The notes below the pieces were generated by a model. It saw only the letters and a list, made by a program, of their open reading frames with translations, was not told the origin of the DNA and searched no databases. From contig CAZOCL010000002.1 of assembly GCA_964578245.1 (NCBI GenBank), forward strand, positions 1,730 through 65,729: 64,000 bases of DNA, written 5' to 3'. Source of the DNA: an uncultured Klebsiella sp. Its GTDB lineage: Bacteria; Verrucomicrobiota; Verrucomicrobiia; Limisphaerales; SXTU01. How positions within the stretch are numbered: the first letter of the stretch is position 1; every line of letters begins with the position of its first letter. Of the stretch, positions 6,576-42,399 are shown piece after piece. Both the position numbers and the translations under genes were made by a program.

Positions 6576-7339
6576 TGCGCATCACCATTGACACCGAGCA
6601 GCGGACCCTGGCCTGTGAAAGCGCCGCCGGCCGCGAGGAACTGCCCCTCTATTCGGACCGGGCGTTTGAGATCCTGTCCGACGAATGGGTCAAGGTCGGC
6701 TGGAACCAGCGCTACTCCTACACGTTCAGTTGGATGGGCCGGCCCATGATCCAGTTGCCGGAGGACGTCATCCGGATCCAGGAGGTCATCTGGCGCGTGC
6801 AGCCGGACGTGATCCTGGAGACCGGCGTGGCCCACGGCGGCTCGCTCGTCTTCTACGCCAGCCTGTGCAAGGCCATCGGTCGCGGCCGCGTCATCGGCAT
6901 TGATATTGAAATCCGGCCGCACAACCGCGCGGCCATCGAGGCGCATCCCCTGGCTTCCTACATCACGCTGATCGAGGGCAGTTCCACCGCGCCCGAAGTC
7001 GTGGCCCGGGCCAAGTCGCTGGTGAAGCCGGGCGAGCGCGTGCTGATCCTGCTGGACTCCTGCCACACCAAGGCCCATGTCCGCGCGGAACTTGAGGCGT
7101 ATGCCTCCCTCGTCAGCCCCGGCTCCTACATCGTGGCCACCGACGGCAGCATGAAGGACCTGCACGACACCCCGCGCGGCCAGCCCGAGTGGACCTGGGA
7201 TCATCCCGTGGCCGCCGCGCAGGAATTTGCCGCCGCGCACCCGGAATTCGTGCCCGAGCAGCCGCAATGGCCGTTCAACGAAAGCCGACTTTCCAAGAAC
7301 ATCACGCACTGGCCGGAAGCCTACTTGCGCCGTGTGTGA
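6575..7339 (+). CDS. CmcI/cephalosporin-hydroxylase-family methyltransferase (sugar O-methyltransferase-like)
   Basis: TGATG overlap. FSWMGRPMIQLPEDVIRIQEVIW...VILETGVAHGGSLVFYA is characteristic of the CmcI family. Confidence 0.72.
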   Translation: MRITIDTEQRTLACESAAGREELPLYSDRAFEILSDEWVKVGWNQRYSYTFSWMGRPMIQLPEDVIRIQEVIWRVQPDVILETGVAHGGSLVFYASLCKAIGRGRVIGIDIEIRPHNRAAIEAHPLASYITLIEGSSTAPEVVARAKSLVKPGERVLILLDSCHTKAHVRAELEAYASLVSPGSYIVATDGSMKDLHDTPRGQPEWTWDHPVAAAQEFAAAHPEFVPEQPQWPFNESRLSKNITHWPEAYLRRV

Positions 7340-7363
7340 CGTGCAGAAGCGTGGCCGGTGCCC

Positions 7364-8191
7364 CTACTTGCCATCCCCTGGCAGCACCCCGGCGAAGTGC
7401 TCCCGCACGAACGGGTCCTCCAAAAACCGCTTCCGCTTCGTCTCGTAGGATTTTCTCAGTCGTGGATCATCCATCTGGCCGGTCAGCAGGCTCGTGATGT
7501 TGCTGGTGTGCCAGAGGAAGCCGCTCATCTCGCGCAGGCTCAGCACCTCCACCCCGTTGCGCACGCCGGTCAAGTGACGGCTCACCAGGTCCCGGTCGCG
7601 CAGGAAGTTGAAGCCCGCCTCGGCCAGCGTGGACCGGCGGGTCAGGACAAAGTGCAGCACCAGCTTGCCCACGCGCTCCGGCCCGGCCTTGCGCTGGTGG
7701 AACTGGTGCTTGAACACGTCCTCCACGCGCTTGCGCCACGGACGGAACGGATTGGCCTCCCGCTCAAACGTGCCCAGCGCGGCAAGATTCTTCGCCTCCA
7801 GATAGCGAAACCATTCCTCATCCCAGCCGGAACGCATGAAGATCGTGTCGCTGTGCACCAGCCCGAGCAGATCGTTCGACGCGGCGGCGATGCCGATGTC
7901 CAGCGCCTCGAAGTTAGCATCCGAGCCGGTGCGCGCCGTGGCATTGTCCAACCGGCGAATGCGCGGAAACTCATCCAGCATCTTCGACTCGGGGCGGCCC
8001 GGCGCATTGTCCACCACGATGACCTCCGGCTCCCCCGTGCTGAAGTGGTAGATGGAATGCAGCGCCATCCGGGTGATCTCCGGCGTCCGGTAGTAGGGGA
8101 TGATGAGCGTGTATTTCACAGGCTGACCGGCTCGTTCGTGACGGCGCAATATGCCGCCCTCGCCGCCGCGACGGCAATCTTTCCGTCGCAC
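7364..8191 (-). CDS. Glycosyltransferase family 2
   Basis: YTLIIPYYRTPEITRMALHSI...VIVVDNAPG is a GT-A N-terminal signature. The true start may be the GTG at 8119 (VKYTLIIPYY). Confidence 0.68.
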   Translation of the reverse strand: MRRKDCRRGGEGGILRRHERAGQPVKYTLIIPYYRTPEITRMALHSIYHFSTGEPEVIVVDNAPGRPESKMLDEFPRIRRLDNATARTGSDANFEALDIGIAAASNDLLGLVHSDTIFMRSGWDEEWFRYLEAKNLAALGTFEREANPFRPWRKRVEDVFKHQFHQRKAGPERVGKLVLHFVLTRRSTLAEAGFNFLRDRDLVSRHLTGVRNGVEVLSLREMSGFLWHTSNITSLLTGQMDDPRLRKSYETKRKRFLEDPFVREHFAGVLPGDGK

Positions 8192-28527: not shown

Positions 28528-29118
28528 TCACCGCCCGAACTGCTTCAGAAACGCCGCCGCGTCGAAACCGTCCGGCTTGAAGACCAGTTCCGGGTTCAAC
28601 GGCGGTTCATAGCCCGCGTCCACCCCGGTCATCTCCCGCAGGGCACCGGTGGCCGCCCGACGGTAAAGCCCCTTGGGATCGCGTTGCTGGCAGACCACCA
28701 GCGGCGTGTCGGCGAACACCTCGATGAACTGGCCGGGGGCAAAGGTCCGGCGGAGGGCGTCCCGCTGCGCGCGGAAGGGCGAGATGCAGGCCACCACCAC
28801 GGTGAAGGACTGCGCCACCAGCACGCGCGCCATCTCGCCGATGCGCCGGACGTTCTCATGCCGGGCAGCCTCCGAGTATCCCAGGTCCGCGTTGACGGTC
28901 CGACGCAGGTCGTCCCCATCCAGCACCACGACCGGGAGGTTCTGTGACTGCAGCGCGGCCTGAATGCGCTGGGCGAGTGTGGTCTTGCCAGCGGCGGGCA
29001 GGCCGGTGATCCAGATCACGGCGGGCAACTCAAGGGTGGCGGTGGGTGCGCTCAACGGCAGAAAGCAGGCGGCAATTGCACGGGAAAGGCAAGCCGAAGC
29101 CAGCCTCTCCGGGGACAA
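28528..29118 (-). CDS. cysC: Adenylylsulfate (APS) kinase
   Basis: VIWITGLPAAGKTTLA P-loop, LDGDDLR, ACISPFR and PKGLYRRA are canonical APS-kinase blocks. The start is TTG. Confidence 0.88.
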   Translation of the reverse strand: MSPERLASACLSRAIAACFLPLSAPTATLELPAVIWITGLPAAGKTTLAQRIQAALQSQNLPVVVLDGDDLRRTVNADLGYSEAARHENVRRIGEMARVLVAQSFTVVVACISPFRAQRDALRRTFAPGQFIEVFADTPLVVCQQRDPKGLYRRAATGALREMTGVDAGYEPPLNPELVFKPDGFDAAAFLKQFGR

Positions 29119-29161: not shown

Positions 29162-29920
29162 GTGTTCGCCCAGCTCAAAGCCAGCCTCAAGAACTGGCAG
29201 CACTCTCGCTCGGCCCCGGCCCGCGTGGTTTATCAAGTTTCCCGGCTGGGCTGGTTGGGCTGCCGTCTGCTCGTGGATGCCCGCCTGCGGGCGGAGACCC
29301 TCGGCCACTGGCGGCACCGCGCCGCCTATCTTCAGCCAGCCACGGAAACCTACCTCAATCGTTATCCCGGGCTGTTCAGGCAATGCCGACTGCGGTTCGC
29401 CGAACATCCTAATCCCCGGATCCTCTCGTTTGGCTGCTCGACCGGAGAGGAGGTCCGCTCCCTGGCCAAACACCTGCCGCAGGCGGTCATTGTAGGGGTG
29501 GACATCAATGACTGGTGCCTGTCCGAGTGCTGGCGCAAGGACCCGCACCACCGGCACACCTTCCTTCATCGGCTATCTGCGGAGTTTGAACGAGAGCCGG
29601 CTTTCGATGCCATCTTCTGCATGGCCGTCCTGCAGCATACGCTGAACCGCGCCAGCGCCGACAATGCCGTGGCCCAAGGCATCACCTTCGAGGAATTCGC
29701 GCGCGAAGTGGCCGTGCTGGATGCCAAGCTGAAAACCGGCGGCCTGCTCTTTCTGGATCATGTGGACTTCCGTTTTGGGGACACGCCCTGCGCCAGCCGC
29801 TACACCCCGCTGGACTTTCCAAGAAATCGCGCCCCGCGCCCGCGGCCCATCTACGGGCCGGATCACCGCAAGCTGGCTGACGTGCAGGACACGCCAAGGG
29901 TGTTCGTCAAGCAGCGCTGA
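29162..29920 (+). CDS. Class I SAM-dependent methyltransferase (lasso-cluster associated)
   Basis: ILSFGCSTGEEVRSLA (motif I) and VGVDIND. GTG start, divergent from cysC with a 43-nt gap. Confidence 0.6.
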   Translation: MFAQLKASLKNWQHSRSAPARVVYQVSRLGWLGCRLLVDARLRAETLGHWRHRAAYLQPATETYLNRYPGLFRQCRLRFAEHPNPRILSFGCSTGEEVRSLAKHLPQAVIVGVDINDWCLSECWRKDPHHRHTFLHRLSAEFEREPAFDAIFCMAVLQHTLNRASADNAVAQGITFEEFAREVAVLDAKLKTGGLLFLDHVDFRFGDTPCASRYTPLDFPRNRAPRPRPIYGPDHRKLADVQDTPRVFVKQR

Positions 29921-30034: not shown

Positions 30035-30967
30035 GTGGCTCCGACACTGGACCCTCTTCCGCCGCACCGACACCGCGTCTATGGCCTGACCATCGCGGCA
30101 TGGATTCCCTTTCCCCAGTTGCCAACGGCACCGGCAGACGCCCCTGTGGACGCTGTCTTCCGCCTCGGCGAGGTGCCGGCGGAGCTGCCGGATTTCAAGA
30201 GCCGGGGTGCCCGCTTCCGGGTTGCGCCGGGCAGATTGCTGGTCTGGATTAACGGCGTGGCGCGCTATCTGGTGGTGGACGGCCGGGAGATCATCGTCCA
30301 GCCGGCCCCGGACGCGGAGGAGAACGACCTGCGCGAGCTGCTCCTCTGCTCGCCGATGGGTGCCCTGCTGCATCAACGCGGCGTGCTGCCGCTGCATGCC
30401 AGCGTCATCGCCACCCCGCGCGGGGCGGTCGCGTTCATGGCCCACTCCGGGCATGGCAAGTCCACCCTCGCCGCGCACTTCCGCCAGCGCGGCTTCAAGA
30501 TTCTCGCCGATGACATCGCAGCGGTGTCCTTTGATGCGGGGGGGAGGCCGATGGTCGCGCCGGGCTACCCCCAGTTCAAACTCTGGCCGGACTCCGTCAA
30601 CGAACTGGGCCACAGCACGACGGATCTGCGTCAGTTCCGGACGAATGTGGAGAAGTTCTTCCTCACGTTCCCAGACGCCTTCCACTCCGAGCCGCTGCCG
30701 CTCACGCAACTGTATGTGGTGGAGGGACGGAATGACGCTGACGGGGTGACATTGGAGCCCTTGAGCGTGCCGGACAAGCTGCGCTACCTCCTCACCCACA
30801 CTTACCGCGCCCAGTATGTGCCTGGGCTCGGCCGGGAGAAGGCCCACTTCCAGACCGTGGGGCGGCTGGCGGCCACAGTTTCCGCCAAGCGCGTGCGGCG
30901 GCCCACCGATGGCACCTTCCGCCTCGAACAACTGGCCGACGCCTTGACGGCCGATTTTGCGCGATGA
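30035..30967 (+). CDS. HPr-kinase-like serine kinase (lasso peptide kinase type)
   Basis: LHASVIATPRGAVAFMAHSGHGKSTLAA P-loop, as in the HprK C-terminal domain. GTG start, followed by cluster genes. Confidence 0.75.
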   Translation: MAPTLDPLPPHRHRVYGLTIAAWIPFPQLPTAPADAPVDAVFRLGEVPAELPDFKSRGARFRVAPGRLLVWINGVARYLVVDGREIIVQPAPDAEENDLRELLLCSPMGALLHQRGVLPLHASVIATPRGAVAFMAHSGHGKSTLAAHFRQRGFKILADDIAAVSFDAGGRPMVAPGYPQFKLWPDSVNELGHSTTDLRQFRTNVEKFFLTFPDAFHSEPLPLTQLYVVEGRNDADGVTLEPLSVPDKLRYLLTHTYRAQYVPGLGREKAHFQTVGRLAATVSAKRVRRPTDGTFRLEQLADALTADFAR

Positions 30968-31809
30968 AAGGCATCGTCTGGCTGGCGAGTTATCCGAAGT
31001 CCGGTAACACTTGGTTCCGGATTTTCCTCGCCAACCTGCTGGCCGACCAGCCGACGCCGGTGGACATTAACGCCATTGAAACCGAGAACTTCGCCGCTCG
31101 AACCACTTATGACCGGGCGCTGGGCTGGGAGACCTCCGACCTGACGCTGGCGGAAGCGTCCCAAGCCCGCCTCGATGTGCAGGAAGCCCTCGCACTGGAG
31201 GACAATGTCTTCTTCAAGGTCCACGAGTCCTTCCGTGATCCAGTCAGCCACGCGCTGCTGTTCTCCCGGGTCGCGACCCGAGCTGTGTTCTACTTTCTCC
31301 GCAACCCGCTGGATGTGGCAGTCTCCTTCAGCCATCATCGGGGCAGGGACCTCGACAACACCATTGTCCGGATGAACAATCCAAACGCCACCATTGCGCC
31401 AGGCCAGGACGGACTGGGACCGCAATTACCCCAGCCCACGGGCGACTGGAGCTGGCATGTGCGGAGCTGGGCCGACGAACCGGGGCTGCCCGTGCTGGTC
31501 CTGCGCTACGAGGACATGCTGGCGCGCCCGCAGGAGGTGTTTCAAGCAGCCTGTGAGTTCGCTGGCCTGCCCAGCGAGCCAGCCCGGGTGGCCCGCGCAC
31601 TGAACCATGCCCGGTTTGAGAATGTCCGCGCGCAGGAGCAGGCAAAAGGCTTCCGTGAGGCGATGGACCGGCGCCCCTTTTTCCGGCATGGCAAGGCTGG
31701 CGGCTGGCGTGAAACCTTGTCGCCAGCGCAGGTTGCCGCTATCGTCTCCCAACATGGCGATGTCATGCGGCGCTTCGGATACCTGAACGCCGATGGTTCG
31801 CCGGTGTAA
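30964..31809 (+). CDS. PAPS-dependent sulfotransferase
   Basis: SYPKSGNTWFR (5'-phosphosulfate binding loop) and FLRNPLDVAVSFSHH (3'-phosphate binding). ATGA overlap with the kinase gene. Confidence 0.82.
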   Translation: MKGIVWLASYPKSGNTWFRIFLANLLADQPTPVDINAIETENFAARTTYDRALGWETSDLTLAEASQARLDVQEALALEDNVFFKVHESFRDPVSHALLFSRVATRAVFYFLRNPLDVAVSFSHHRGRDLDNTIVRMNNPNATIAPGQDGLGPQLPQPTGDWSWHVRSWADEPGLPVLVLRYEDMLARPQEVFQAACEFAGLPSEPARVARALNHARFENVRAQEQAKGFREAMDRRPFFRHGKAGGWRETLSPAQVAAIVSQHGDVMRRFGYLNADGSPV

Positions 31810-31913: not shown

Positions 31914-31929
31914 TTTCTGATTTTTGCCT

Positions 31930-32217
31930 ATGACCAAGACCGCCCTCACCCTCCAGTCTGTCGTCGCCCAGTCGCCTGATCTGGTCGGGACGAACATCGA
32001 GGACCACACCGCGCTCCTGAGCATCACCAACGGTGCGTATTACAGCCTGGACCCCGTGGCCAGCCGCGTCTGGCAGCTCATTGAGCAGCCGCGCCCGGTG
32101 ACGGCGGTCGTGGACCATTTGCTCACCGAATACACCGTGGAGCGGGCCACTTGCGAGGCGCACACGCTCGCCTTCCTCCAGCAGCTCGCCGACGCCGATC
32201 TGCTGGCCAAGCAGTAA
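31930..32217 (+). CDS. Lasso peptide biosynthesis B1 protein (PqqD-family RRE)
   Basis: LLSITNGAYYSLDPVASRVWQLIEQPRPVTAVVDHLLTEYTV...AFLQQLADADLL is a PqqD-like winged helix. Confidence 0.82.
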   Translation: MTKTALTLQSVVAQSPDLVGTNIEDHTALLSITNGAYYSLDPVASRVWQLIEQPRPVTAVVDHLLTEYTVERATCEAHTLAFLQQLADADLLAKQ

Positions 32218-32663
32218 TGTCCCGCCTCGCCAAGTTTCTCCGGCATGACTGGGCCGGACGCGGCCTGCTGCTGGAGGCGCTGGCCTGGCTGGTCTGGGCC
32301 AAGCTGCTCCTGCTGGTCGTCCCGTTTCGCTGGATTGCGCCGCGCCTGGGCAGGCCAATGACGGAGAGCGCCGCCAGCCTGACCGAGCCCGGAAGCCTGC
32401 TTGCCTCCCGAATTTCCTGGGCCGTGCAATCCGTGGCGGCAAACGTGCCGCTAGGGCTGGTCTGCCTGCCGCAAGCCATGGCGGCCAAATGGATGCTCCG
32501 CCGCAGGCACCTCGCCAGCACGCTTTACCTCGGCGTGGCCCGGCCGGATGAGGCGAAGTTCACCGCGCACGCCTGGCTCCGCGCCGGCAACAAGATCCTG
32601 ACCGGCCGCGCCGAGAGCCGCACCCACACCACGCTCGCCTCCTTTGCTGAGGAATGGCCGTGA
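32217..32663 (+). CDS. Lasso peptide biosynthesis B2 protein (transglutaminase-like leader protease)
   Basis: TAATG overlap with B1. CLPQAMAAKWML (catalytic Cys) and FTAHAWL (His), with the size and N-terminal hydrophobic helix typical of B2. Confidence 0.82.
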   Translation: MSRLAKFLRHDWAGRGLLLEALAWLVWAKLLLLVVPFRWIAPRLGRPMTESAASLTEPGSLLASRISWAVQSVAANVPLGLVCLPQAMAAKWMLRRRHLASTLYLGVARPDEAKFTAHAWLRAGNKILTGRAESRTHTTLASFAEEWP

Positions 32664-32688: not shown

Positions 32689-34605
32689 ATGAGCGCTCTC
32701 TGCGGCTTCCTCAACCTCGACGCCGCTCCGGCTGACTCCCAGCTCGTCGCGGCGCAGGTGGCCCGATTGCAGCATCGCGGGCCGGACGGTTCCGGCACGT
32801 TCACGGAGGGTCCCTGCGCGCTGGGCCATCTGCTCCTGCGCATCACGCCGGAGGCGGACGGGGAAACGTCTCCCTTTCACAGCCCGGACGACCAGCTCGT
32901 GATCGCCTTCGACGGCCGGCTGGATCACCGCGAGGACCTGCTGGCCGCGCTCGGCGTCCCGCCCTCGGAGCGTGGCCTGCCCGATCCCGCGCTCATCCTC
33001 CGCGCGTATGCGCAGTGGGGTGCCGATTGCGTGACCAGGCTCGACGGCGAGTTTGCCTTCGCCGTCTGGGACCGGCGGCGGCAGGAGTTGTTCTGCGCGA
33101 GTGACGCTTTTGGCAGCCGCCCGTTTTACTTTTACCAGGACGCGCGGCGGCTGGTGTTTGCCAGCGCCATCCGCGGCGTGCTGGCCGTGCCCGGGGTGCC
33201 GCGCGAACTCGACGAGCTGTCCCTCGCCTGCTCGCTCGGAGGCGCGCCCCAACCGCCGGGCCAGACGCTCTACGCCCGCATTTCCTTTCTGCCCGGTGGT
33301 CGCACGCTGACCGTGCCGCGCGGTGGCCGGCCGGTGATCCGGACCTGGTGGCAGTTGACGATGGAACCGGAAATCCAGCTCCGCTCCACCGAAGACTATA
33401 CCGAGGCCTTGCGTGAACTGCTGGAGCGGGCCACGCGCTCAGCCATGCGCACGCGGCATCCGGTGGGTGCCATGCTCAGCGGCGGGCTGGACTCCAGCGG
33501 CGTAGCCTGCCTCGCTGCGCGCGACCTCGCCTCGCGCGGCCAGCGGCTCGTCACGGTGTCCACGGTGTTGCCCGAGGATTTCCAAGGCGTGGAATGGGAG
33601 AAGGAGGAAAGCGCGTTCATCCGCAGCGCCCTGGAGCGCTACCCGAACATGGCCCCGCACTGGGCGCGGGGCCTGGCTTTTCCAGTCATCACCTTCAATG
33701 ACGCGGCCTACCAGTTGCACGACGAGCCTGACAACGATCCAAAATCTTTCCGGACAGCGGAGCTGTTCCGGCTTGCGGAGCAGGCGGGGACGCGCGTCCT
33801 GCTCGGCGGCATGGGGGGCGACATGGCCGCTTCGTTCAAGGGCACCGGTTACCTGCAGCAGCTCGCCCTGGGCGCGCGCTGGGGGGAACTGGTCCGTCAC
33901 CTCCAGTTGCTGGCGCGCGTCCGGGGCGAGACGGTGCCCGGCATCTTCCGGCGCGAAGTGCTCCGGCCGCTGGCCCCCGAATGGCTGCGCCGTTGGAACG
34001 ACACGTTCCGGCACGATGCCGCAGCAACTCGGGATGAGTTCAGCATCCAGCCCGAGTTCGCCGCGCGGATGCAGATGGCCGAACGCCGCCGGGCCGCCGG
34101 ACGGGACATCGAAAGGCCGGCGGATTTCCGACGCCTGCAGGTTTCGCTGGCGAACGCCGGCCTCCTCGGCGGCGGCTCAGGCTGGGCGAGCCGCCACACC
34201 CCGCACATGGAAAGCCCCCAGCCGCTCATGAACCGCCGGCTTTGGGAGTGGTGCCACCGGGTGCCGCTGGGAGAGTTCACGCGGGATGGCATGTCCCGCG
34301 GGCTCTACCGCCGTGCGCTGCACGATGTGCTGCCGGAGCGCATTCTGCGCCGCCACTCCAAAGGCTGGTTCGCGCCGGACTACGTGCAGCGCCTCGCTGC
34401 CTGCCGCCCGGCGATGGAACGCTTCCTCGCGGAGCATCCCGCGCAGGACGCGGTTTGGAATTACGTGAGCCGCCCTCAAGTGGAGGCGACCTTACAGCGT
34501 CTGGCCGCCGCTGGCACTCAGGCCAGATGGGACAATCGTTACCAAATCATCCTGTGTCAGGGCCTCCGGCTAGCACACTTTGTCACTTGGATGCGGGGGC
34601 GGTGA
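32689..34605 (+). CDS. Lasso peptide cyclase (asparagine-synthetase-like, C protein)
   Basis: MSALCGFL N-terminus, MLSGGLDSSGVA PP-loop, and about 640 aa in length. It follows B2. Confidence 0.85.
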   Translation: MSALCGFLNLDAAPADSQLVAAQVARLQHRGPDGSGTFTEGPCALGHLLLRITPEADGETSPFHSPDDQLVIAFDGRLDHREDLLAALGVPPSERGLPDPALILRAYAQWGADCVTRLDGEFAFAVWDRRRQELFCASDAFGSRPFYFYQDARRLVFASAIRGVLAVPGVPRELDELSLACSLGGAPQPPGQTLYARISFLPGGRTLTVPRGGRPVIRTWWQLTMEPEIQLRSTEDYTEALRELLERATRSAMRTRHPVGAMLSGGLDSSGVACLAARDLASRGQRLVTVSTVLPEDFQGVEWEKEESAFIRSALERYPNMAPHWARGLAFPVITFNDAAYQLHDEPDNDPKSFRTAELFRLAEQAGTRVLLGGMGGDMAASFKGTGYLQQLALGARWGELVRHLQLLARVRGETVPGIFRREVLRPLAPEWLRRWNDTFRHDAAATRDEFSIQPEFAARMQMAERRRAAGRDIERPADFRRLQVSLANAGLLGGGSGWASRHTPHMESPQPLMNRRLWEWCHRVPLGEFTRDGMSRGLYRRALHDVLPERILRRHSKGWFAPDYVQRLAACRPAMERFLAEHPAQDAVWNYVSRPQVEATLQRLAAAGTQARWDNRYQIILCQGLRLAHFVTWMRGR

Positions 34606-35050: not shown

Positions 35051-35221
35051 ATGAGCCTTATGAACACGACCACCGCCTCCGCCTCAGTCGAAAACACCGA
35101 GTCCAAGCAGGTTTGGACCGCCCCCACTTTGACGACGCTTTCGCTCCCGCTGGGAACGCTTTCCAATGCTGCCACCGGTGCGGATGGCATGTCGTCGAAA
35201 GCGGCGGGAAGCCTAAGCTAA
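35051..35221 (+). CDS. Lasso peptide precursor A1 (56 aa)
   Basis: MSLMNTTTASASVENTESKQVWTAPTLTTLSLPLGTL|SNAATGADGMSSKAAGSLS. It has a WxxPxL leader motif, Thr at -2 and Asp at core position 8. Its paralog is at 36727. Confidence 0.8.
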   Translation: MSLMNTTTASASVENTESKQVWTAPTLTTLSLPLGTLSNAATGADGMSSKAAGSLS

Positions 35222-35343: not shown

Positions 35344-36495
35344 ATGTATAGCTTGCGCGGTTATGGAGAAATGATCGCGGATGAAGGCCGGGCCACCGCC
35401 TTCGAGCAATCGATCCGTGCCGCCGTCAAGCCACAGTCTGTGGTGCTCGAGCTGGGCACGGCCACCGGGCTGATGGCCCTCTGGGCTGCGCAGGCCGGTG
35501 CGCGCCATGTCCATGCCGTCGAGCCAGATAAATCCATCGTCCTCGCCCGACAAAGTGCGAGAGACAATGGGTTTGCCAGCCGCATTACCTGTCATCAGAA
35601 GCTGTCCACCCAGCTCACGCTGTCGGAGCGGGCGGACGTGTTCATAGAGGATTTGCGCGGGTCCATGCCGTGCTGCAGGACTCGGTTGCTGGACATCATG
35701 GACGCGCGGGCGCGGCTGCTCACGCCGGATGCGACTTTGATCTGCCAGCGGGATACGTGCTTCGTCACGGTGGCCGAGGCCGAGAAGCCGTCGCGTCACA
35801 TGCACGCAGTGTGGGACGGAAGCCGCTGGGGGCTGGACTTGAGGGCGGTGCAACGGCTGGCACCCAATTGCATGACCCATCATCGCTGCGCCCCCGAGGA
35901 ACTGCTAGCGGAACCGCGCGCCTGGGCGGAGATTCACTACCCGACCGTCAGTTCGCCCCATGTGCGGGGCGCGGCGGAGCTCACTGTCCTTCGTCCTGCC
36001 ACCGCGCACGGGCTGGCGCTCTGGTTCGACGCGGAACTGTTCGGCGGCATCCGTTTCTCGAATGCCCCAAGCGAGCCGAAGCACGTTTACAACAATGCCT
36101 TCCTGCCATGGCCAGCACCCACGCCCCTGCAGGCGGGCGACCGGGTGGTGGTGAAGCTGGACGCGGTCTTTACTGGCGGAGAATATGAGTGGAACTGGGC
36201 GAGCACCGTCTGGCGCGAAGGCGCGGCGGAACCCGTCGCGCGGTTCAGCCAGTCCACGTTACAAGGCCGGCCGGTTTCCGCGCCGGCACTGGCCCTTCGC
36301 ACCGGCAGCTTCCGCCCGCACCGCAATGACGCCGCCGAAGTGGAGCGCTTCCTGCTCGAACGCATGGATGGCCAGGCCACCAACGACCAACTGGCCGCCG
36401 CGCTCCGCACCCAGTTTCCCAATGCCTTCCCCACCGACACCGCCGCGCTCGCCCGCGTGGTGGACACCGTGGAGAAGTTCAGCGCTACGAGTTGA
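35344..36495 (+). CDS. PRMT-like class I methyltransferase with a PqqD/RRE-like C-terminal domain
   Basis: VLELGTATGLMALWAAQAGARHVHAVE (PRMT-type motif I) and a beta-barrel-like middle region. The C-terminal FLLERMDGQATNDQLAAALRTQFP...ALARVVDTVEKF resembles PqqD. Confidence 0.65.
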   Translation: MYSLRGYGEMIADEGRATAFEQSIRAAVKPQSVVLELGTATGLMALWAAQAGARHVHAVEPDKSIVLARQSARDNGFASRITCHQKLSTQLTLSERADVFIEDLRGSMPCCRTRLLDIMDARARLLTPDATLICQRDTCFVTVAEAEKPSRHMHAVWDGSRWGLDLRAVQRLAPNCMTHHRCAPEELLAEPRAWAEIHYPTVSSPHVRGAAELTVLRPATAHGLALWFDAELFGGIRFSNAPSEPKHVYNNAFLPWPAPTPLQAGDRVVVKLDAVFTGGEYEWNWASTVWREGAAEPVARFSQSTLQGRPVSAPALALRTGSFRPHRNDAAEVERFLLERMDGQATNDQLAAALRTQFPNAFPTDTAALARVVDTVEKFSATS

Positions 36496-36626: not shown

Positions 36627-36726
36627 GCGAATGCGTTCGTCACTGCCAGTTGAAGAATGAAAGACTTGCAGGTTCGCGGGCAATACGACTATCCTCCACA
36701 AGGTTTTACCGCAGGGATTTGTGAAC

Positions 36727-36876
36727 ATGAACACCGCCACCGTCGAAAACACTGATGGGTCCAAGCAGGTTTGGACCGCCCCCACTTTGACAACGCTTTC
36801 GCTCCCGCTGGGAACGCTGGCCACCGGTAACAATGGTTCGGATGGTGGCGTCATGGCCAGCACCACCAGGAGTTAG
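36727..36876 (+). CDS. Lasso peptide precursor A2 (49 aa)
   Basis: MNTATVENTDGSKQVWTAPTLTTLSLPLGTL|ATGNNGSDGGVMASTTRS. About 60 nt of the leader are near-identical to A1. It is below the ORF-track cutoff. Confidence 0.8.
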   Translation: MNTATVENTDGSKQVWTAPTLTTLSLPLGTLATGNNGSDGGVMASTTRS

Positions 36877-37041
36877 CTGGTTGTTGTCAAATGGCAGCCT
36901 GACCATGCACTGCCCGCACCGTGGAGAAGTCCAACCCCACGGGCTCGGAGGCACGGAACGTGGCCGTGAGGCCGCCGAAACGTGAGCAGGCCACGGTGGA
37001 TGCGAACGCACTACTCCAGTCAGGGTTCTGCGGCGTTCCAT

Positions 37042-37815
37042 TCAAAACAAGCCCGTGTCGTAGTGTTTCAGCCACCGGAACAGTCCACGGTGCTCCTCCG
37101 GAATGGCAGCCAGACGCTCTGGTGAAATCTTCATAAATGGCTGCTGGCGGTAGTTCTGGTAGTCCTTGAACCACGGGCGGTGATACACGCAGTAGAGCAT
37201 GGGCCGAGGCTGGTCGGAAAGGTTCGCGGTGCCGTGATGGAACAGCCGGTAGTCCACCAGCAGGCCGCAGCCCAGCGGCACGGTGGGATCCAGCCCGGGA
37301 GTTGCCTTGCCCTCCTCGTCCGGTTTCAAGTGCGAGCCGGGCATCAGGCGGGTGGTGCCGTTGGTTGCGTTGAACTCGCGGAGCGGGATGAAGAGATTGA
37401 CCGCGTGGGGCGGGAGAAAACGGTTTAGCACGGGACCGAACAGCAGCGGGTTGTCCCGATGAAGGTGCTGGTCCTTGGCTCCCGGCAAGGATGTGACTGA
37501 GGCAAAGCTGCCCAGCACCAAGTCCGACCCGAGCAACTGCTGGAGCACCGGCAGGACGAGCGGGTTGGCGTAAAGCGCCGCATCAAGAAAGGGCATCTCC
37601 ATCTCCAAAGTAACCATGAACCGGCGGCTGCCCACCTTGAGCGCATCCCCTGGCCGGTCTTCGTCGAAATACCGGGCGTAACGCTCGCAATACACTTCAC
37701 CGAGCTGGCTGACGAGTTCACGGGGCAGCAGGTCACGAACGAGCAGGCATCCATGACGGCGAAATTGCTCGGCGCAGCTTTCCGGAGTCGAGGCGGCGGT
37801 GAGTTCGGGAACCAT
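37042..37815 (-). CDS. PhyH-family Fe(II)/2-oxoglutarate dioxygenase
   Basis: DQHLHRD (HxD) and LFHHGTAN (distal His). The length and pattern are those of phytanoyl-CoA-dioxygenase-like hydroxylases. Confidence 0.75.
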   Translation of the reverse strand: MVPELTAASTPESCAEQFRRHGCLLVRDLLPRELVSQLGEVYCERYARYFDEDRPGDALKVGSRRFMVTLEMEMPFLDAALYANPLVLPVLQQLLGSDLVLGSFASVTSLPGAKDQHLHRDNPLLFGPVLNRFLPPHAVNLFIPLREFNATNGTTRLMPGSHLKPDEEGKATPGLDPTVPLGCGLLVDYRLFHHGTANLSDQPRPMLYCVYHRPWFKDYQNYRQQPFMKISPERLAAIPEEHRGLFRWLKHYDTGLF

Positions 37816-37907: not shown

Positions 37908-38747
37908 TCACCACCCCAGCCACGTGCGCAGCCCGCCGCTGGTGAACAGCACCGCTGGATAGCAGGCGAGGAAGGCCCATAGAAACGGCGCGAGGCCCAT
38001 GAAGTGGCCGATGCCGAGGTGCAAGAGGAAGACCCCGGCCACAAACACCGCCGCCACCGGCCCGCCCGTCAGCCAGGCCAGCGGGAAGCCGATCTCCAAC
38101 ACGAGCGCGCCCCAGGTCGCCGTCCGATTCACTGCGGGGTGCGCGGCCAGCCACGCCGCCAGCCGGCGGTCTCCCATCAGGTCCTGCCGCAGCAGGCAGC
38201 CGATGGCTTCTCCCGAGCGCCAGGCCCCGGTCGTGAGGGCCTTGAGCACACCGCTCGTGAAGTAGGCCAGCGCGCACTGACCGGCGATGAACCACAGGAC
38301 CGCCTGCGCCACGGATGCGCTCGCCGGCGCGAGTTCCCGCAGCACGAGCGCGCCCAGCACGGCAAGCCGCATCCGGTCCGCCCCGAGCACGCCCAGACCG
38401 AATTGCCGCACATTGATCAGCACGGCGGCCACCACGCCCAGCCACAAGGCGAGGGGACGCACCACGGGGTCGGCCGGCACCAGCACCAGCACCAGCCCGG
38501 CGAGCAGTCGGGCCACCTGGAGGGCAGCAAACCCGGTGGCGCGGAACAGGCAACCCAGCGCCACCGGACCTTCGCCCCGCAGGCGCGAGCGCTGGCGCAG
38601 CAGTGGCCAGCCCAGCACCGCGTCATCCGCCCAGGCGTTGCGGGCGGCCAGCCATTCGGCCGCCGAAACCGCGAGACTGACGCCAGCAAGCCGTGTGACC
38701 AGTGTCACGCACGCGAAGGGATCCTGCAGCCAGACGGCGTCAATCAC
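37908..38747 (-). CDS. Polytopic membrane protein, unknown function
   Basis: About 8 hydrophobic segments. The GTG start overlaps the upstream stop (GTGA). No family was recognised with confidence. Confidence 0.6.
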   Translation of the reverse strand: MIDAVWLQDPFACVTLVTRLAGVSLAVSAAEWLAARNAWADDAVLGWPLLRQRSRLRGEGPVALGCLFRATGFAALQVARLLAGLVLVLVPADPVVRPLALWLGVVAAVLINVRQFGLGVLGADRMRLAVLGALVLRELAPASASVAQAVLWFIAGQCALAYFTSGVLKALTTGAWRSGEAIGCLLRQDLMGDRRLAAWLAAHPAVNRTATWGALVLEIGFPLAWLTGGPVAAVFVAGVFLLHLGIGHFMGLAPFLWAFLACYPAVLFTSGGLRTWLGW

Positions 38748-39280
38748 ACGGCCTCCCCTCCCGTTGCCAGCGGCAGAAACTCGGAGGTGTAGAGGCGCTG
38801 CTCGGGGGCGTCCGCCGTGATCAGCAGTTGCTCGCGCAGTTCAAACTGCCGCGCGGTCGTTCCCGGCGGGCCGGCCACGCCCGCCACGCAGTGCCATAAA
38901 GCCCGCCAGGCTGGAGTGCTGGCCAGGCGTTCCGCCGGCAGCGCGGCGCGCACGCGGTCGGCCAGCAGCTCCGCGAGCGAATACTGCGCGTCGGCTGCGA
39001 ACAGCTCCGGATTGAAGAACGCGCGCCAGGGCCGCTGGCTGCGCTCGGCAGGCAACCACCGCCATTCGCCGACGCTCCCAGCGGCATCCCGGTCGCGATA
39101 ATAGAGCCGCACATTCGTCGGGAGCCCGGTGTAAAGCCGCCAGCTCGGCACGAGCCGTAAGAAGTCGAATCGCGCCATGACTGCGGTCAGGCGGGTGAAG
39201 CACAGTTGGTAGGCCACGGAGACGGCGAACCATGCTGCCAGCAGCAGGAGGGCGAGCCATTCCATGACGGCGAGATTCAT
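38744..39280 (-). CDS. Membrane-anchored hypothetical protein
   Basis: ATG at 39280 (MNLAVMEWLALLLLAAWFAVSVAY...) in an ATGA overlap with the upstream gene. The longer 39460 start overlaps that gene and is unlikely. Confidence 0.5.
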   Translation of the reverse strand: MNLAVMEWLALLLLAAWFAVSVAYQLCFTRLTAVMARFDFLRLVPSWRLYTGLPTNVRLYYRDRDAAGSVGEWRWLPAERSQRPWRAFFNPELFAADAQYSLAELLADRVRAALPAERLASTPAWRALWHCVAGVAGPPGTTARQFELREQLLITADAPEQRLYTSEFLPLATGGEAV

Positions 39281-40464
39281 GATTGGGCAGCGAGCCGCCG
39301 CTTCACCCACAGCAGCGGCCAGAGCACGTAGTAGAGGGCGAACCACCGGTCCGGGAGGGGCAGCGTCTGCCAGTCCGCCGGGTTCACCACGCGCGGACGC
39401 AACATGCGGAGGCGCACGCGCCAGCTTGGCTGCAGCCGCCAGGCGTAGCCAACCATCCACCAGTGCGCCGAGCCGGTCTTGATTTCATCCGGCGTCAGCT
39501 CCATGTGGCGGCAGGCGTCGTCCACGAGCTGGGTGAGCACGGGAGTTTCCGGCGGAGCCGGCAGCCCGGCCGGCAGCGGCACGGCGAGGAGTTCACGCGC
39601 GAGCAGGACGCTCTGCCAGAAGACGCGCTCCAGTTTCGTCGCCTCCGCCCGGGCGAGCAGGCGCGGCCAGTCGAGTGTGCCAGCCTGCATCAGCAGCGCG
39701 ATGTCCAGGAGCCAGAAGAGCCGGAACCAGCCGTGGTCCGCGCCGTGCAGGAGCAGGTGCAGCGCGGCCGTCTCCGCCGGCAGCACGGCGATGCGCTGGC
39801 CCGCAATGGTCGCCGTGCCCGGAGCTTCCCCCAGCGTGCTGCGGTGGAAGTGCTCGTGGTTCACCAGCCGCCACATGATCTCCAATCGCAGCGCGCCGTC
39901 CGCGCTGAAATACTCAAACTCATGACGCACGCTGAAGTATTTCTGCTGCTGGAGCGGCGTGAGCGGAAAGTCCGGCTGGGTGCGACGGAACCCGGCGTCT
40001 TGCAGCAGCCGGTCCGCGCGTTCGGCGTCCGCCTGGCGGATCAGCAGGTCCAGGTCGCCCGAGTGGCGCAGGCCCAGATCGCCATACAAGTCGCGAGCCA
40101 GCAGCGGCCCTTTCACGCTCGTGACGGGGATGCCGGCTTGTTCGAGCAGCTTCACGAGGCGCGTCAGTTCGCCGGTGCGCTGCATGGCGCGGAGGGCGGT
40201 GTCCCGGGCACTGCTGGCGAGCCGCTGGCGCACTGCCTCCGGCAGCGCGGCCAAAGCCTCGCGGGGCAGCCGTTGTTGCAGGAACGCACCCACGCGATGC
40301 CGCTCGACGAGGGCCAGGAACGTGCCGGCGTCCGTGCCCTCCGGCCAGGGCAACTCCGGCGGCGCAGTGCGCAGCGCGACCCGCAAGGCGTGGAGGAGGA
40401 GGCGTATTTCCGCCGGCCAGTGGCGGGCGCGGCCGGGGAGTTCCAGGGGTGGCACGGGGTTCAT
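39277..40464 (-). CDS. NTP_transf_5-type uncharacterised nucleotidyltransferase
   Basis: ATG at 40464 (MNPVPPLELPG...). VKGPLLARDLYGDLGLRHSGDLDLLI (G..hS.DlDlL motif) and HGADHGW are typical of this family. Confidence 0.65.
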   Translation of the reverse strand: MNPVPPLELPGRARHWPAEIRLLLHALRVALRTAPPELPWPEGTDAGTFLALVERHRVGAFLQQRLPREALAALPEAVRQRLASSARDTALRAMQRTGELTRLVKLLEQAGIPVTSVKGPLLARDLYGDLGLRHSGDLDLLIRQADAERADRLLQDAGFRRTQPDFPLTPLQQQKYFSVRHEFEYFSADGALRLEIMWRLVNHEHFHRSTLGEAPGTATIAGQRIAVLPAETAALHLLLHGADHGWFRLFWLLDIALLMQAGTLDWPRLLARAEATKLERVFWQSVLLARELLAVPLPAGLPAPPETPVLTQLVDDACRHMELTPDEIKTGSAHWWMVGYAWRLQPSWRVRLRMLRPRVVNPADWQTLPLPDRWFALYYVLWPLLWVKRRLAAQS

Positions 40465-40761
40465 GGCGCACACCGTGGGGGGCAGGACGCGCTCACTCCG
40501 AGCGCCGAAGCGGGCGGACACCGCCGGCCCGGAGCGCGGCCTGCAGGCCGCAGAAACGTGCGCCGGCCCGGGGTGGTTCGAACGCACTTCTCGCGTCGGA
40601 GCTTTCTGCGGCCTGAAGGCCGCGCTGCACGGGCGCGAAGTTCCGCCGGCTCGTGGAGGCCCATACCAGCGTGGGTCGAAATTCTTGTGTTCGCGAGTGT
40701 CATCCTGACCAGATGCGGAAAAGCAGGCGCAGACCGGAGTAAAATGGCAAAGCAAAACCAC

Positions 40762-40815: not shown

Positions 40816-42399
40816 TTACTTGCCGTCGGCACCACCGCCTTCAAGGTGCACGGCCTTGTAACCGCCGATGGACTTGAAGTAGAGCAGGATGCCCAGATAA
40901 ATCAGCGCCATCATGGCGGGGATGGCGGAATCGGCCACGAGCGTGCGGCGATCACCGGCAATGGAGGCTTCCGCCGCAGCCTTCTGCTCCGGCGTGCGCT
41001 TGGCCGCCTCTGCCTTCTGAGCATCGGCGAGTTTGGTGCCATCGAGGCCGTTCACTTCGCTGAAGAAGAGGAAGGAACTGGACTTGTCCGCCTTGAACTG
41101 TTTGTAGGCTTCCGGGTTTGCCTTCTGCAATTCCTCGCCAGCGAAGCGGTCCTTGGCGTAGCCAAGACCGGGGGAGCCGAGCATGCCCGCCGACATCATG
41201 CCGATGCCACCCATGATGGAGATGGCGATGGCACCCGTGCGCGGGAAACGATCTGAGGCCACGGCCAGCATGGTCGGCCAGAAGAAGGTCTTGCCGATGC
41301 CGTAAACCGTGAGGGCGAGTAGCGCCCCGCCGAAGCTGGAGATGCCGCTGACGAGGTTGAGGCCGACGCACGCGAGCACCGCGCAGGTGAGCAGGATGGC
41401 CACCGGGGTAAGGCCGATTTTGCGCTCGATGAAGTCCGCGCAGAAGCGCAGTGCAAACATCGTGGCCGAGGTGAAGACGAAGAGAATCTTGCCTTCGCTG
41501 GAGCTGAGGATGTTGCCGGTGATGTTCTGAATCCATCCGTCCGTGCCGAGTTCGACTGCGCCAACCAGCGCATGGGCCAGGAAAAGGACGAACAGGAGCA
41601 CCGAGCCCATGGAGAACTTGGTCATCACCGCGACCACCACGAGCAACGCGCCGCCGATGCCATAGGAAATCCCGGCGGAAAGACCGAGCGTGTCCTTGCA
41701 GAAGAGCGCCAGCAGGCTGCACACAACGAGGCCGCCAAGGATGCCGACATCCTTGAGCATTTCGCCGAGGCTCAGCCCTTTCTTGGAAGCCTCCGATTTG
41801 GGGAAGCTCTGGCCGAAGAACATGATGCCGTAGGCGACGGTGGGGATCAGGTAGAGGCCGAGCTGGATCTTCCAGTTGACCTTCATCTGGTCGTCCAGCA
41901 CCCAGCCCAGCACGCCACCGATGATGAGGCCGGCGGGCCAGGAGGCATGGAGGATGTTCAGGTAGTGCGTGCGGTTGTGCGGGAAAAGTGTGGCCACGAG
42001 CGGATTGGCGACGGCTTCAAGCGTTCCGTTGGCGAAGGCGAAGATGAACATGCCCCACTTGAGCATGTCGAAGGCGTTCTCCTTGCTCGTGGCCCCGAAG
42101 GTCACGAAGGCGGACAGCACATGCAGCGCGAAGGCGACAATCACCAGCTTGCCGTAGCCGATCTTGTCGCAGACCACGCCACCGATGATGATGCCGAAGC
42201 AGAAGCCGGTGAAGCCAGCGCCGCCGATCGCCCCAAGCTGGGCACCCGTAAAGCCAAACTCCTCGCCCCAGTTGTCAAAGATGCCGCCGCGGATGGCGAA
42301 GCCGACACCGGCAGCGAGAATGGCCATGAAGCCGGCCCACAGCAGCCGTTTGGCATTGGGCGCGATGGCCTCGTTGGAGATCGTTTTGTCTTCTATCAT
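40816..42399 (-). CDS. MFS transporter
   Basis: About 12 transmembrane segments. [12 protein letters not shown] loop 2-3 motif and a long hydrophilic C-terminal tail. Confidence 0.8.

Follow-up and report, generated by a model that had tools for sequence, protein, structure and literature searches.

PadeK, ThcoK, SyanK and PsmK, characterised kinases of lasso-peptide clusters, (poly)phosphorylate the C-terminal Ser of the linear precursor (PMC9266682, PMC8498205, PMC6993621), and the rule that pairs a kinase resembling HPr kinase/phosphorylase (HprK/P) with a C-terminal Ser has been in print since 2016 (Zhu et al. 2016, via PMC9266682; PMC8498205), with a conserved C-terminal Ser given for lasso kinases in reviews (PMC9266682, PMC8498205). 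Members of this family depend on ATP or GTP and modify the Ser side chain in the linear precursor rather than in the threaded lasso. A His-Lys-Asp-Asp (H-K-D-D) motif is conserved in PadeK/ThcoK and essential by mutagenesis (Zhu et al. 2016, via PMC9266682). The SyanK precursor has nothing but the C-terminal Ser in common with the others, and it is this Ser that SyanK polyphosphorylates (PMC9266682, PMC8498205), while in pseudomycoidin the nucleotidyltransferase PsmN is needed to place one or two hexoses on the phosphorylated terminal Ser (PMC6993621). HPr kinase and sulfotransferase genes of lasso clusters were described in 2014 (PMC4289311), and a review from 2021 mentions them once more (PMC8498205), with no function assigned. 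Here, we analysed an open reading frame (ORF; positions 30035–30967, forward strand) in a 64,000-nt stretch of DNA (hereafter the window; contig CAZOCL010000002.1 of assembly GCA_964578245.1, positions 1,730 to 65,729) from an uncultured bacterium of the Limisphaerales (Verrucomicrobiota), which a first-pass annotation had described as an HPr-kinase-like enzyme, with an HprK-type P-loop, paired with two Ser-ending precursors. Its product is quite probably a lasso tailoring enzyme of the PadeK/ThcoK/SyanK/PsmK kind that would act on the C-terminal Ser of these precursors; the phosphotransfer, its site, its timing and the decorations that may follow are predicted from sequence.

The kinase gene and its relationships

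The gene and the residues on which its assignment depends are the following (strand and coordinates refer to the window).

30035–30967, forward strand: kinase (K), predicted lasso-peptide precursor kinase; GTG start, 310 amino acids (aa); assigned by homology, motif and AF2 model
30395–30397, forward strand: codon of His121, the predicted catalytic His of H-K-D-D; invariant in an alignment of 39 homologs and aligned with the LH of HprK/P
30440–30466, forward strand: P-loop AHSGHGKST, residues 136–144, including Lys142; G141, K142 and S143 invariant
30509–30514, forward strand: codons of Asp159 and Asp160; invariant in the 39-homolog alignment and aligned with the DD of HprK/P

The P-loop named in the first-pass annotation is thus indeed encoded, at bases 30440–30466. 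The GTG start is preceded at a distance of about 10 nt by AGGTAGGA, and the gene that follows, which encodes a Sulfotransfer_1 protein (2e-25), opens with an ATG overlapping the kinase stop codon (gcgcgATGAaa). Just one ORF of this type is present in the window. One database yielded at least 1389 homologs with E ≤ 1e-3, the count being a minimum since scoring covered only the 8000 candidates sharing most words, and in a second database 17,599 cluster representatives matched the kinase, 2,040 of them at E ≤ 1e-30. With homologs in such numbers, the ORF is a real gene. Precomputed annotation assigns these homologs to Pfam PF27840, named ScmC, a family younger than the Pfam release that we scanned, hence the absence of a kinase match in that scan.

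Conservation is centred on the expected catalytic residues. The 39-homolog alignment, which takes in sequences of as little as 40% identity, is invariant at positions that include H121, S138, G141, K142, S143, D159 and D160, and among 99 kinases from the wider set described below, H121 is retained in 97, K142 and D159 in all 99, and D160 in 96. A single-sequence search of the Protein Data Bank (PDB) with the kinase returned chance matches and a weak match to PEP carboxykinase (PEPCK), nothing else. The AF2 model (mean pLDDT 94.9, pTM 0.92) has PEPCKs as its best Foldseek matches (E ~1e-7). The catalytic domain of HprK/P belongs to the same superfamily as the PEPCKs, and the modelled ORF product is a P-loop enzyme with a PEPCK/HprK-type fold.

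The link to the lasso-tailoring family is provided by a plasmid. A tblastn search of plasmids led to a lasso cluster on Priestia aryabhattai pB2.3, in which RefSeq lists, in this order, a lasso cyclase, a 'paeninodin family lasso peptide', a 311-aa 'aldolase', a PqqD chaperone, B2 and an ATP-binding cassette (ABC) transporter. The precursor, MKKEWKKPELEVLDVNKTMLGGSGEYTDAAFPTHTPKGDLTFES, scores 57.7 bits with NF033524, above the cut-off of 27, and its C-terminus reads ..TFES. The 'aldolase' is the kinase: by BLASTP it aligns with the window ORF over residues 5–293, that is, full-length, at 33% identity (E = 1e-53), a homology link that leads to an NCBI-typed paeninodin-family cluster rather than to the characterised PadeK, ThcoK, SyanK or PsmK proteins. 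Close relatives of the pB2.3 kinase carry PF07475 together with PF27840, and the latter family is common to the homologs of the window kinase and the Firmicutes kinases. Among the best 120 matches of a search with the Priestia kinase, all were from Bacillaceae at ≥60% identity and the characterised kinases were not included; proteobacterial relatives are 30–39% identical to the window kinase.

Family scans place the kinase first in a one-strand string of genes running K, sulfotransferase (ST), B1 (PqqD-type chaperone), B2 (leader peptidase), C (lasso cyclase), A1 (first precursor), MT2 (a methyltransferase) and A2 (second precursor), which bears out the kinase–sulfotransferase–B1–B2–C order proposed earlier; the same lasso core was found in related loci. 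Because full-length homology and the H-K-D-D residues coincide with a complete B1/B2/C cluster and with Ser-ending precursors, assignment of the window kinase as a verrucomicrobial addition to the known family of lasso-peptide precursor kinases is supported. Like PadeK and ThcoK, it is about 310 aa long, has an HprK-like P-loop and an H-K-D-D motif, and is encoded in a split-B lasso cluster with a Ser-ending precursor. The PadeK/ThcoK clusters, however, are from Firmicutes, have the order C-A-K-B1-B2-D and encode an ABC transporter, whereas the verrucomicrobial window has the order K-ST-B1-B2-C-A, a major facilitator superfamily (MFS) transporter in place of the ABC transporter, two precursors without a match to the PadeA family model, and numerous additional tailoring genes. 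SyanK of Sphingobium yanoikuyae exemplifies a Gram-negative kinase-bearing lasso cluster whose organization, like that of the window, is unlike the Firmicutes type (PMC9266682, PMC8498205). The pseudomycoidin cluster of Bacillus pseudomycoides, with PsmK and PsmN, combines a kinase and an NTP_transf_5 nucleotidyltransferase in one lasso cluster, as does the window, where a change of strand and about 8 kb separate the nucleotidyltransferase gene from K; the window adds a sulfotransferase with an adenosine 5′-phosphosulfate (APS) kinase, two methyltransferases, a PhyH dioxygenase and an HTTM protein.

The resemblance to HprK/P raises the question of whether the ORF could instead encode a true HPr kinase/phosphorylase, one serving carbon catabolite control, and simply neighbour a lasso cluster. 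The P-loop and the LH...DD motifs are common to both, as are the catalytic His, Lys and Asp-Asp and the PEPCK-like fold (PDB 1jb1, 1ko7), and relatives in databases are often named 'HPr kinase/phosphorylase'. When a 39-homolog profile was compared with the PDB, however, the HprK/P structures 1jb1, 2qmh and 1ko7 matched over residues 120–172 only (27 bits, E = 1.5e-5), a match in which LH...GxSGxGKS...DD aligns with L. casei HprK/P. The kinase had no match to TIGR00679 at E ≤ 0.01, scored 14.7 bits against a cut-off of 33.3 for Pfam Hpr_kinase_C and 33 bits against a cut-off of 200 for HprK_rel_A, and Hpr_kinase_N was absent from its family matches. HprK/P further differs in its N-terminal domain, substrate and genomic context, and the kinase gene is translationally coupled into a lasso operon, an arrangement kept in many loci. 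We therefore reject this identity, which is almost certainly wrong: the HprK-likeness of the kinase is confined to a P-loop core of about 50 residues, and by the Pfam and NCBIfam thresholds it is no HprK. The likeness to HPr kinase named in the first-pass annotation accordingly holds for the P-loop core and does not extend to the curated families, and the grouping with genuine HPr kinases that would have undermined the annotation was not observed.

Kinases of lasso clusters bear a variety of names in RefSeq and UniRef; among the Firmicutes homologs (for example, at 6998–7933 of locus L017), they are often labelled 'aldolase', 'HPr kinase/phosphorylase', 'ATP-binding cassette domain-containing protein' or 'phosphoenolpyruvate carboxykinase (ATP)'. 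For this kinase family, such names are misleading.

Precursor C-termini and the predicted acceptor

The window encodes two precursors.

35051–35221, forward strand: precursor A1; leader containing WTAPTL, Thr at −2; core SNAATGADGMSSKAAGSLS; terminal Ser codon 35216–35218
36721–36876, forward strand: precursor A2; same leader; core ATGNNGSDGGVMASTTRS; terminal Ser codon 36871–36873

Core 1 is encoded at 35162–35221 and core 2 at 36820–36876, each with its stop codon, and both end in Ser. The leaders are nearly identical, ending in ...KQVWTAPTLTTLSLPLGTL with Thr at −2, and their WTAPTL fits [Y/W]xxPx[L/V/I], the consensus for leaders bound by a RiPP (ribosomally made, post-translationally modified peptide) recognition element (RRE; PMC13381572). 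Both cores have an Asp at position 8, available for an 8-residue ring. At the DNA level, the A1 and A2 leaders are almost identical and the cores have diverged, with different codons for the terminal Ser (AGC and AGT). Translation thus bears out that the two cores share a terminal Ser although they otherwise differ. The A1 ortholog in L001, the closest relative of the window locus, ends in ..NSLS.

To this pair we added a census of kinase loci (numbered with the prefix L), comprising 16 from species-representative genomes (Limisphaerales, other Verrucomicrobiota, Azospirillum, Alteromonadaceae and others), 80 from metagenomes, three from plasmids and five from look-ups. The genome scan used an alignment of 9 kinase sequences as the query, the loci were annotated with iterated hidden Markov models built from window proteins, and precursors were sought by the leader motif, Thr at −2 and an acidic residue at core positions 7–9. 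A neighbour-joining tree of 99 kinases separates two groups: a main clade that unites the window with other Verrucomicrobia, Proteobacteria and the Firmicutes paeninodin type, and a clade linked to homologs of MT2 (loci L066–L098, for example L074:5946-6947 and L082:7986-8969). In the main clade, 35 loci yielded 40 candidate precursors, of which 33 have Ser and 5 have Thr as the last residue, 38 in all; the remaining two, ending in Ile and Gly, come from one locus, whose third precursor does end in Ser. The background frequency of such ends among the small ORFs of the same loci is about 15% (Ser 10.3%, Thr 4.7%). When the kinases were grouped at 40% identity to reduce relatedness, all 15 of the 15 groups had a Ser- or Thr-ending precursor (binomial ~5e-13). 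These data strongly indicate that the terminal Ser/Thr is present beyond chance and conserved across independent kinase lineages, which agrees with the earlier proposal that a conserved terminal Ser would fit C-terminal O-phosphorylation.

The second clade provides a contrast. Its kinases, homologs at 25–33% identity that mostly adjoin PRMT-like methyltransferases, retain the H/K/D/D residues (H121 is present in 26 of 26, compared with 71 of 73 in the main clade); of their 12 candidate precursors, however, none ends in Ser or Thr and seven end in Cys-Leu. Four positions differ markedly between the clades: Q114 (68 of 71 kinases in the main clade versus 4 of 26 in the MT2-linked clade), R115 (72 of 73 versus 14 of 26), R258 (64 of 73 versus 9 of 26) and R289 (68 of 73 versus none of 26). 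Conserved as they are in the clade of Ser/Thr-ending precursors and not in the other, Q114, R115, R258 and R289 suggest themselves as candidates for recognizing the free C-terminus.

The same comparison bears on where the kinase would act. Conceivably, its target is a Ser or Thr within the core or the leader, other than the last residue, and the terminal Ser is kept for some other reason, for example as the acceptor of the sulfotransferase or as a feature of the lasso tail. The window cores are rich in Ser and Thr, the MT2-linked kinases retain H/K/D/D even though their precursors lack a terminal Ser, and LppK, an HprK-like RiPP kinase, modifies core Ser3 (PMC13381572). On the other hand, the terminal Ser/Thr is the sole hydroxyl position found in every kinase lineage sampled, the cores being otherwise different; the window kinase falls with the clade of Ser/Thr-ending precursors, outside the MT2-linked clade; and the characterised lasso-cluster kinases described in reviews all target the terminal Ser (PMC9266682, PMC8498205). 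We consider an internal acceptor distinctly improbable. The system of LppK itself, that of the linear polyphosphorylated peptides (LPPs; PMC13381572), resembles the window in having an HprK-like RiPP kinase and a discrete RRE, and LppK polyphosphorylates a single Ser. It acts, however, on a linear peptide, and its clusters encode a signal-peptidase-like leader protease and no cyclase, whereas the window has B2 and C; the combination that marks LPP clusters (SpI-like peptidase, no cyclase) is thus not that of the window, in which an SpI-type peptidase was not specifically searched for.

Several observations nevertheless weigh against phosphorylation of the terminal Ser by the window kinase. The precursor lists were curated by eye from motif matches, which is the weakest step of the census. 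The Thr ends all come from close verrucomicrobial relatives, L004, L008, L009, L010 and L020 (..TNLT, ..MNNT, ..QSAT, ..NTNT and ..ATLT); taken at face value, these predicted precursors show that sister clusters can have Thr where the window has Ser. The co-occurrence of intact MT2-linked kinases with Cys-Leu precursors means that the kinase gene alone does not fix the acceptor, and both window cores hold several Ser/Thr residues besides the last. The nearest kinase from a Firmicutes cluster is only 33% identical and is itself uncharacterised. Finally, HprK-like RiPP kinases are not limited to a terminal Ser, as LppK uses Ser3 and refuses Thr at that position (PMC13381572).

In five of the loci (L005, L007, L011, L016 and L104), precursors were not found, relaxed scans included. 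A candidate core in L033, in which the terminal Ser is the sole hydroxyl, was not relied on, as the cyclase was undetected and the intervening region is odd. A further candidate precursor core, GPSTFSSGQAAHVS, lies at L019:9142-9231 on a plasmid of Thalassobaculum sp. OXR-137, beside two kinase genes, a cyclase and a sulfotransferase; it contains neither Asp nor Glu, so that the usual lasso isopeptide ring could not form.

Tailoring genes around the kinase

Beyond the kinase and the precursors, the cluster and its flanks contain the following genes.

28528–29118, reverse strand: APS kinase (CysC); APS_kinase 3.4e-53, TIGR00455 4e-57
29162–29920, forward strand: MT1, class I S-adenosylmethionine (SAM) methyltransferase directly 5′ of K; Methyltransf_12/23/25
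30964–31809, forward strand: ST, sulfotransferase of the type using 3′-phosphoadenosine 5′-phosphosulfate (PAPS), ATGA overlap with K; Sulfotransfer_1 2e-25
31924–32217, forward strand: B1, PqqD-type leader-binding chaperone (RRE); PqqD 7.5e-18; NF033536 2.5e-20, below cut-off (72.4 versus 80 bits)
32217–32663, forward strand: B2, leader peptidase, transglutaminase-like; NF033537 5e-25; start placed at a Met overlapping the B1 stop
32689–34605, forward strand: C, lasso macrolactam cyclase; NF033535 9.5e-118, below cut-off (394.5 versus 525 bits); Asn_synthase 8e-30; start placed at Met16 of the ORF beginning at 32644
35344–36495, forward strand: MT2, PRMT/PrmA-like methyltransferase between the precursor genes; PRMT_C, PrmA
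37042–37815, reverse strand: PhyH-family Fe/2OG dioxygenase; PhyH 1.9e-16
37908–38747, reverse strand: HTTM/SdpB-like membrane protein, downstream of N; TIGR04033, weak (7e-6), its sole family match; kept in L001 at the same relative position
38744–39460, reverse strand: ORF of about 180–238 aa without an assigned family, kept in L001 at the same relative position
39277–40446, reverse strand: N, PsmN-type nucleotidyltransferase, NTP_transf_5; PF14907 6.6e-57 (39277–40761); start placed from homolog lengths
40816–42399, reverse strand: MFS transporter, candidate exporter; MFS_1 6.5e-18; probable cluster member by position only

The cluster is unusually heavily decorated, and the kinase is its ordinary part. 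In particular, kinase, sulfotransferase and nucleotidyltransferase genes, the three accessory types on record for paeninodin-like clusters, are all present. The cluster also has the combination of kinase and NTP_transf_5 by which phosphoglycosylated lasso peptides of the pseudomycoidin type are recognized, and homologs of N occur in about 30 kinase loci, including Paenibacillus L018.

The nearest solved relatives of ST are Teg12, Teg14 and StaL, sulfotransferases of glycopeptide antibiotics, and the N-terminal segment that aligns with Teg12 includes YPKSGNTW, which we take to be the PAPS 5′-phosphosulfate-binding loop of sulfotransferases. An APS kinase lies beside the cluster in the window and in L001, L004, L020 and L100, and it would presumably supply PAPS for ST. 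Given an ST of the Teg12/Teg14/StaL type and the adjoining APS kinase, sulfation is very likely part of the pathway. It also complicates detection of the kinase product: the gain of +79.957 Da from sulfate is nearly isobaric with that of +79.966 Da from phosphate, so that the adjoining ST confounds the search for +79.966 Da suggested in the first-pass annotation.

ST adjoins 20 of the 105 kinase genes. In all 19 K–ST pairs with examined geometry, which span Verrucomicrobia, Alphaproteobacteria and Alteromonadaceae, ST lies 3′ of K on the same strand, and at least 13 of these pairs have a 4-nt overlap (ATGA, GTGA or TTGA). Across the long main-clade loci, ST and N mostly alternate: ten loci have only ST, 13 only N, four (the window included) both and nine neither. 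This alternation fits, without proving it, a role of ST as a second-step partner of the kinase, as N is.

Taken further, the coupling could mean that the two enzymes form an obligate relay, in which ST sulfates either the phosphoserine made by the kinase, yielding a peptidyl phosphosulfate, or a sugar placed by N on the phosphate, so that the kinase product would be an intermediate. The invariant gene order across phyla with its frequent overlaps, the alternation of ST with N, an enzyme that acts on the phosphate (PMC6993621), and the dedicated APS kinase in several loci are all in keeping with such a relay. So is the comparison of clusters with and without ST, the precursors of which share no other hydroxyl position; a hydroxyl conserved only in the precursors of ST-bearing clusters was likewise not evident. 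Against it, Teg12, Teg14 and StaL O-sulfate hydroxyls of peptide antibiotics, the coupling of the K and ST genes could mean co-expression only, and we know of no sulfotransferase with a phosphate acceptor. Our literature searches for sulfated lasso peptides or a phosphosulfate found nothing relevant, nor did we find in the searched literature a paper that assigns a role to a lasso-cluster sulfotransferase. We regard the relay as unlikely. Were it true, the last residue of the lasso would bear a compound anionic group, a modification not described for any peptide, and the long-noted sulfotransferase of lasso clusters would have its first assigned function.

The methyltransferases also associate with the kinase. 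MT1 adjoins K in L001, L002 and L054 as well as in the window, and elsewhere a methyltransferase and a kinase are fused in a 751-aa protein (P0195); together, the adjacency and the fusion suggest that methyltransferase and kinase are functionally linked; the phosphate or the C-terminal carboxylate might be methylated, for example. Homologs of MT2 are present in many kinase loci. The window itself encodes a homolog of the methyltransferase of the MT2-linked clade, yet its cores contain no Cys.

Locus L001, with a kinase 95% identical to that of the window, has the same cluster without A2 and the PhyH dioxygenase (L001:15394-17394 compared with 36721–37815 of the window). Because the two are absent together, A2 and the dioxygenase may form a unit, with a hydroxylase specific for A2. 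The genome records that contain L001 and L008 are labelled 'uncultured Klebsiella sp.' and 'Klebsiella pneumoniae', names that seem wrong in view of a GC content of about 65% and of relatives among Limisphaerales and Verrucomicrobiota.

Predicted pathway and its implications

By homology with PadeK, ThcoK, SyanK and PsmK, from which we take the order of kinase, B2 and C, the pathway in the window probably runs as follows. The two precursors would be bound through the WxxPxL motif of their common leader by the PqqD-type B1, which may also help the kinase step. While the precursor is still linear, the kinase would transfer one or more phosphoryl groups from ATP (or GTP) to the hydroxyl on the side chain of the last residue (Ser19 in core 1, Ser18 in core 2), with Lys142 of the P-loop binding the nucleotide and His121 together with Asp159/Asp160 acting in catalysis. 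B2 would then cut off the leader after Leu−1, and C would join residue 1 to Asp8, so that a ring of eight residues encloses the tail. Further decoration of the phosphoserine is probable: the PsmN-type N may add a hexose onto the phosphate, as in pseudomycoidin, and the coupled ST probably sulfates either the peptide or what decorates it, with PAPS derived from the adjoining APS kinase.

The interpretation of the ORF as a kinase of this type is supported by computation as far as sequence evidence reaches. It extends a published family, and the C-terminal Ser rule, to Verrucomicrobiota, which by itself adds little. Its value lies in the context, in which kinase, ST and N occur together with a PAPS supply, two methyltransferases, a dioxygenase and an HTTM protein. 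The coupling of K and ST across phyla, the alternation of ST and N, the methyltransferase–kinase fusion and the tracking of Ser/Thr ends by Q114, R115, R258 and R289 are all testable leads, and the window cluster is a good candidate for finding the role of the lasso-cluster sulfotransferase and whether that role depends on the kinase.

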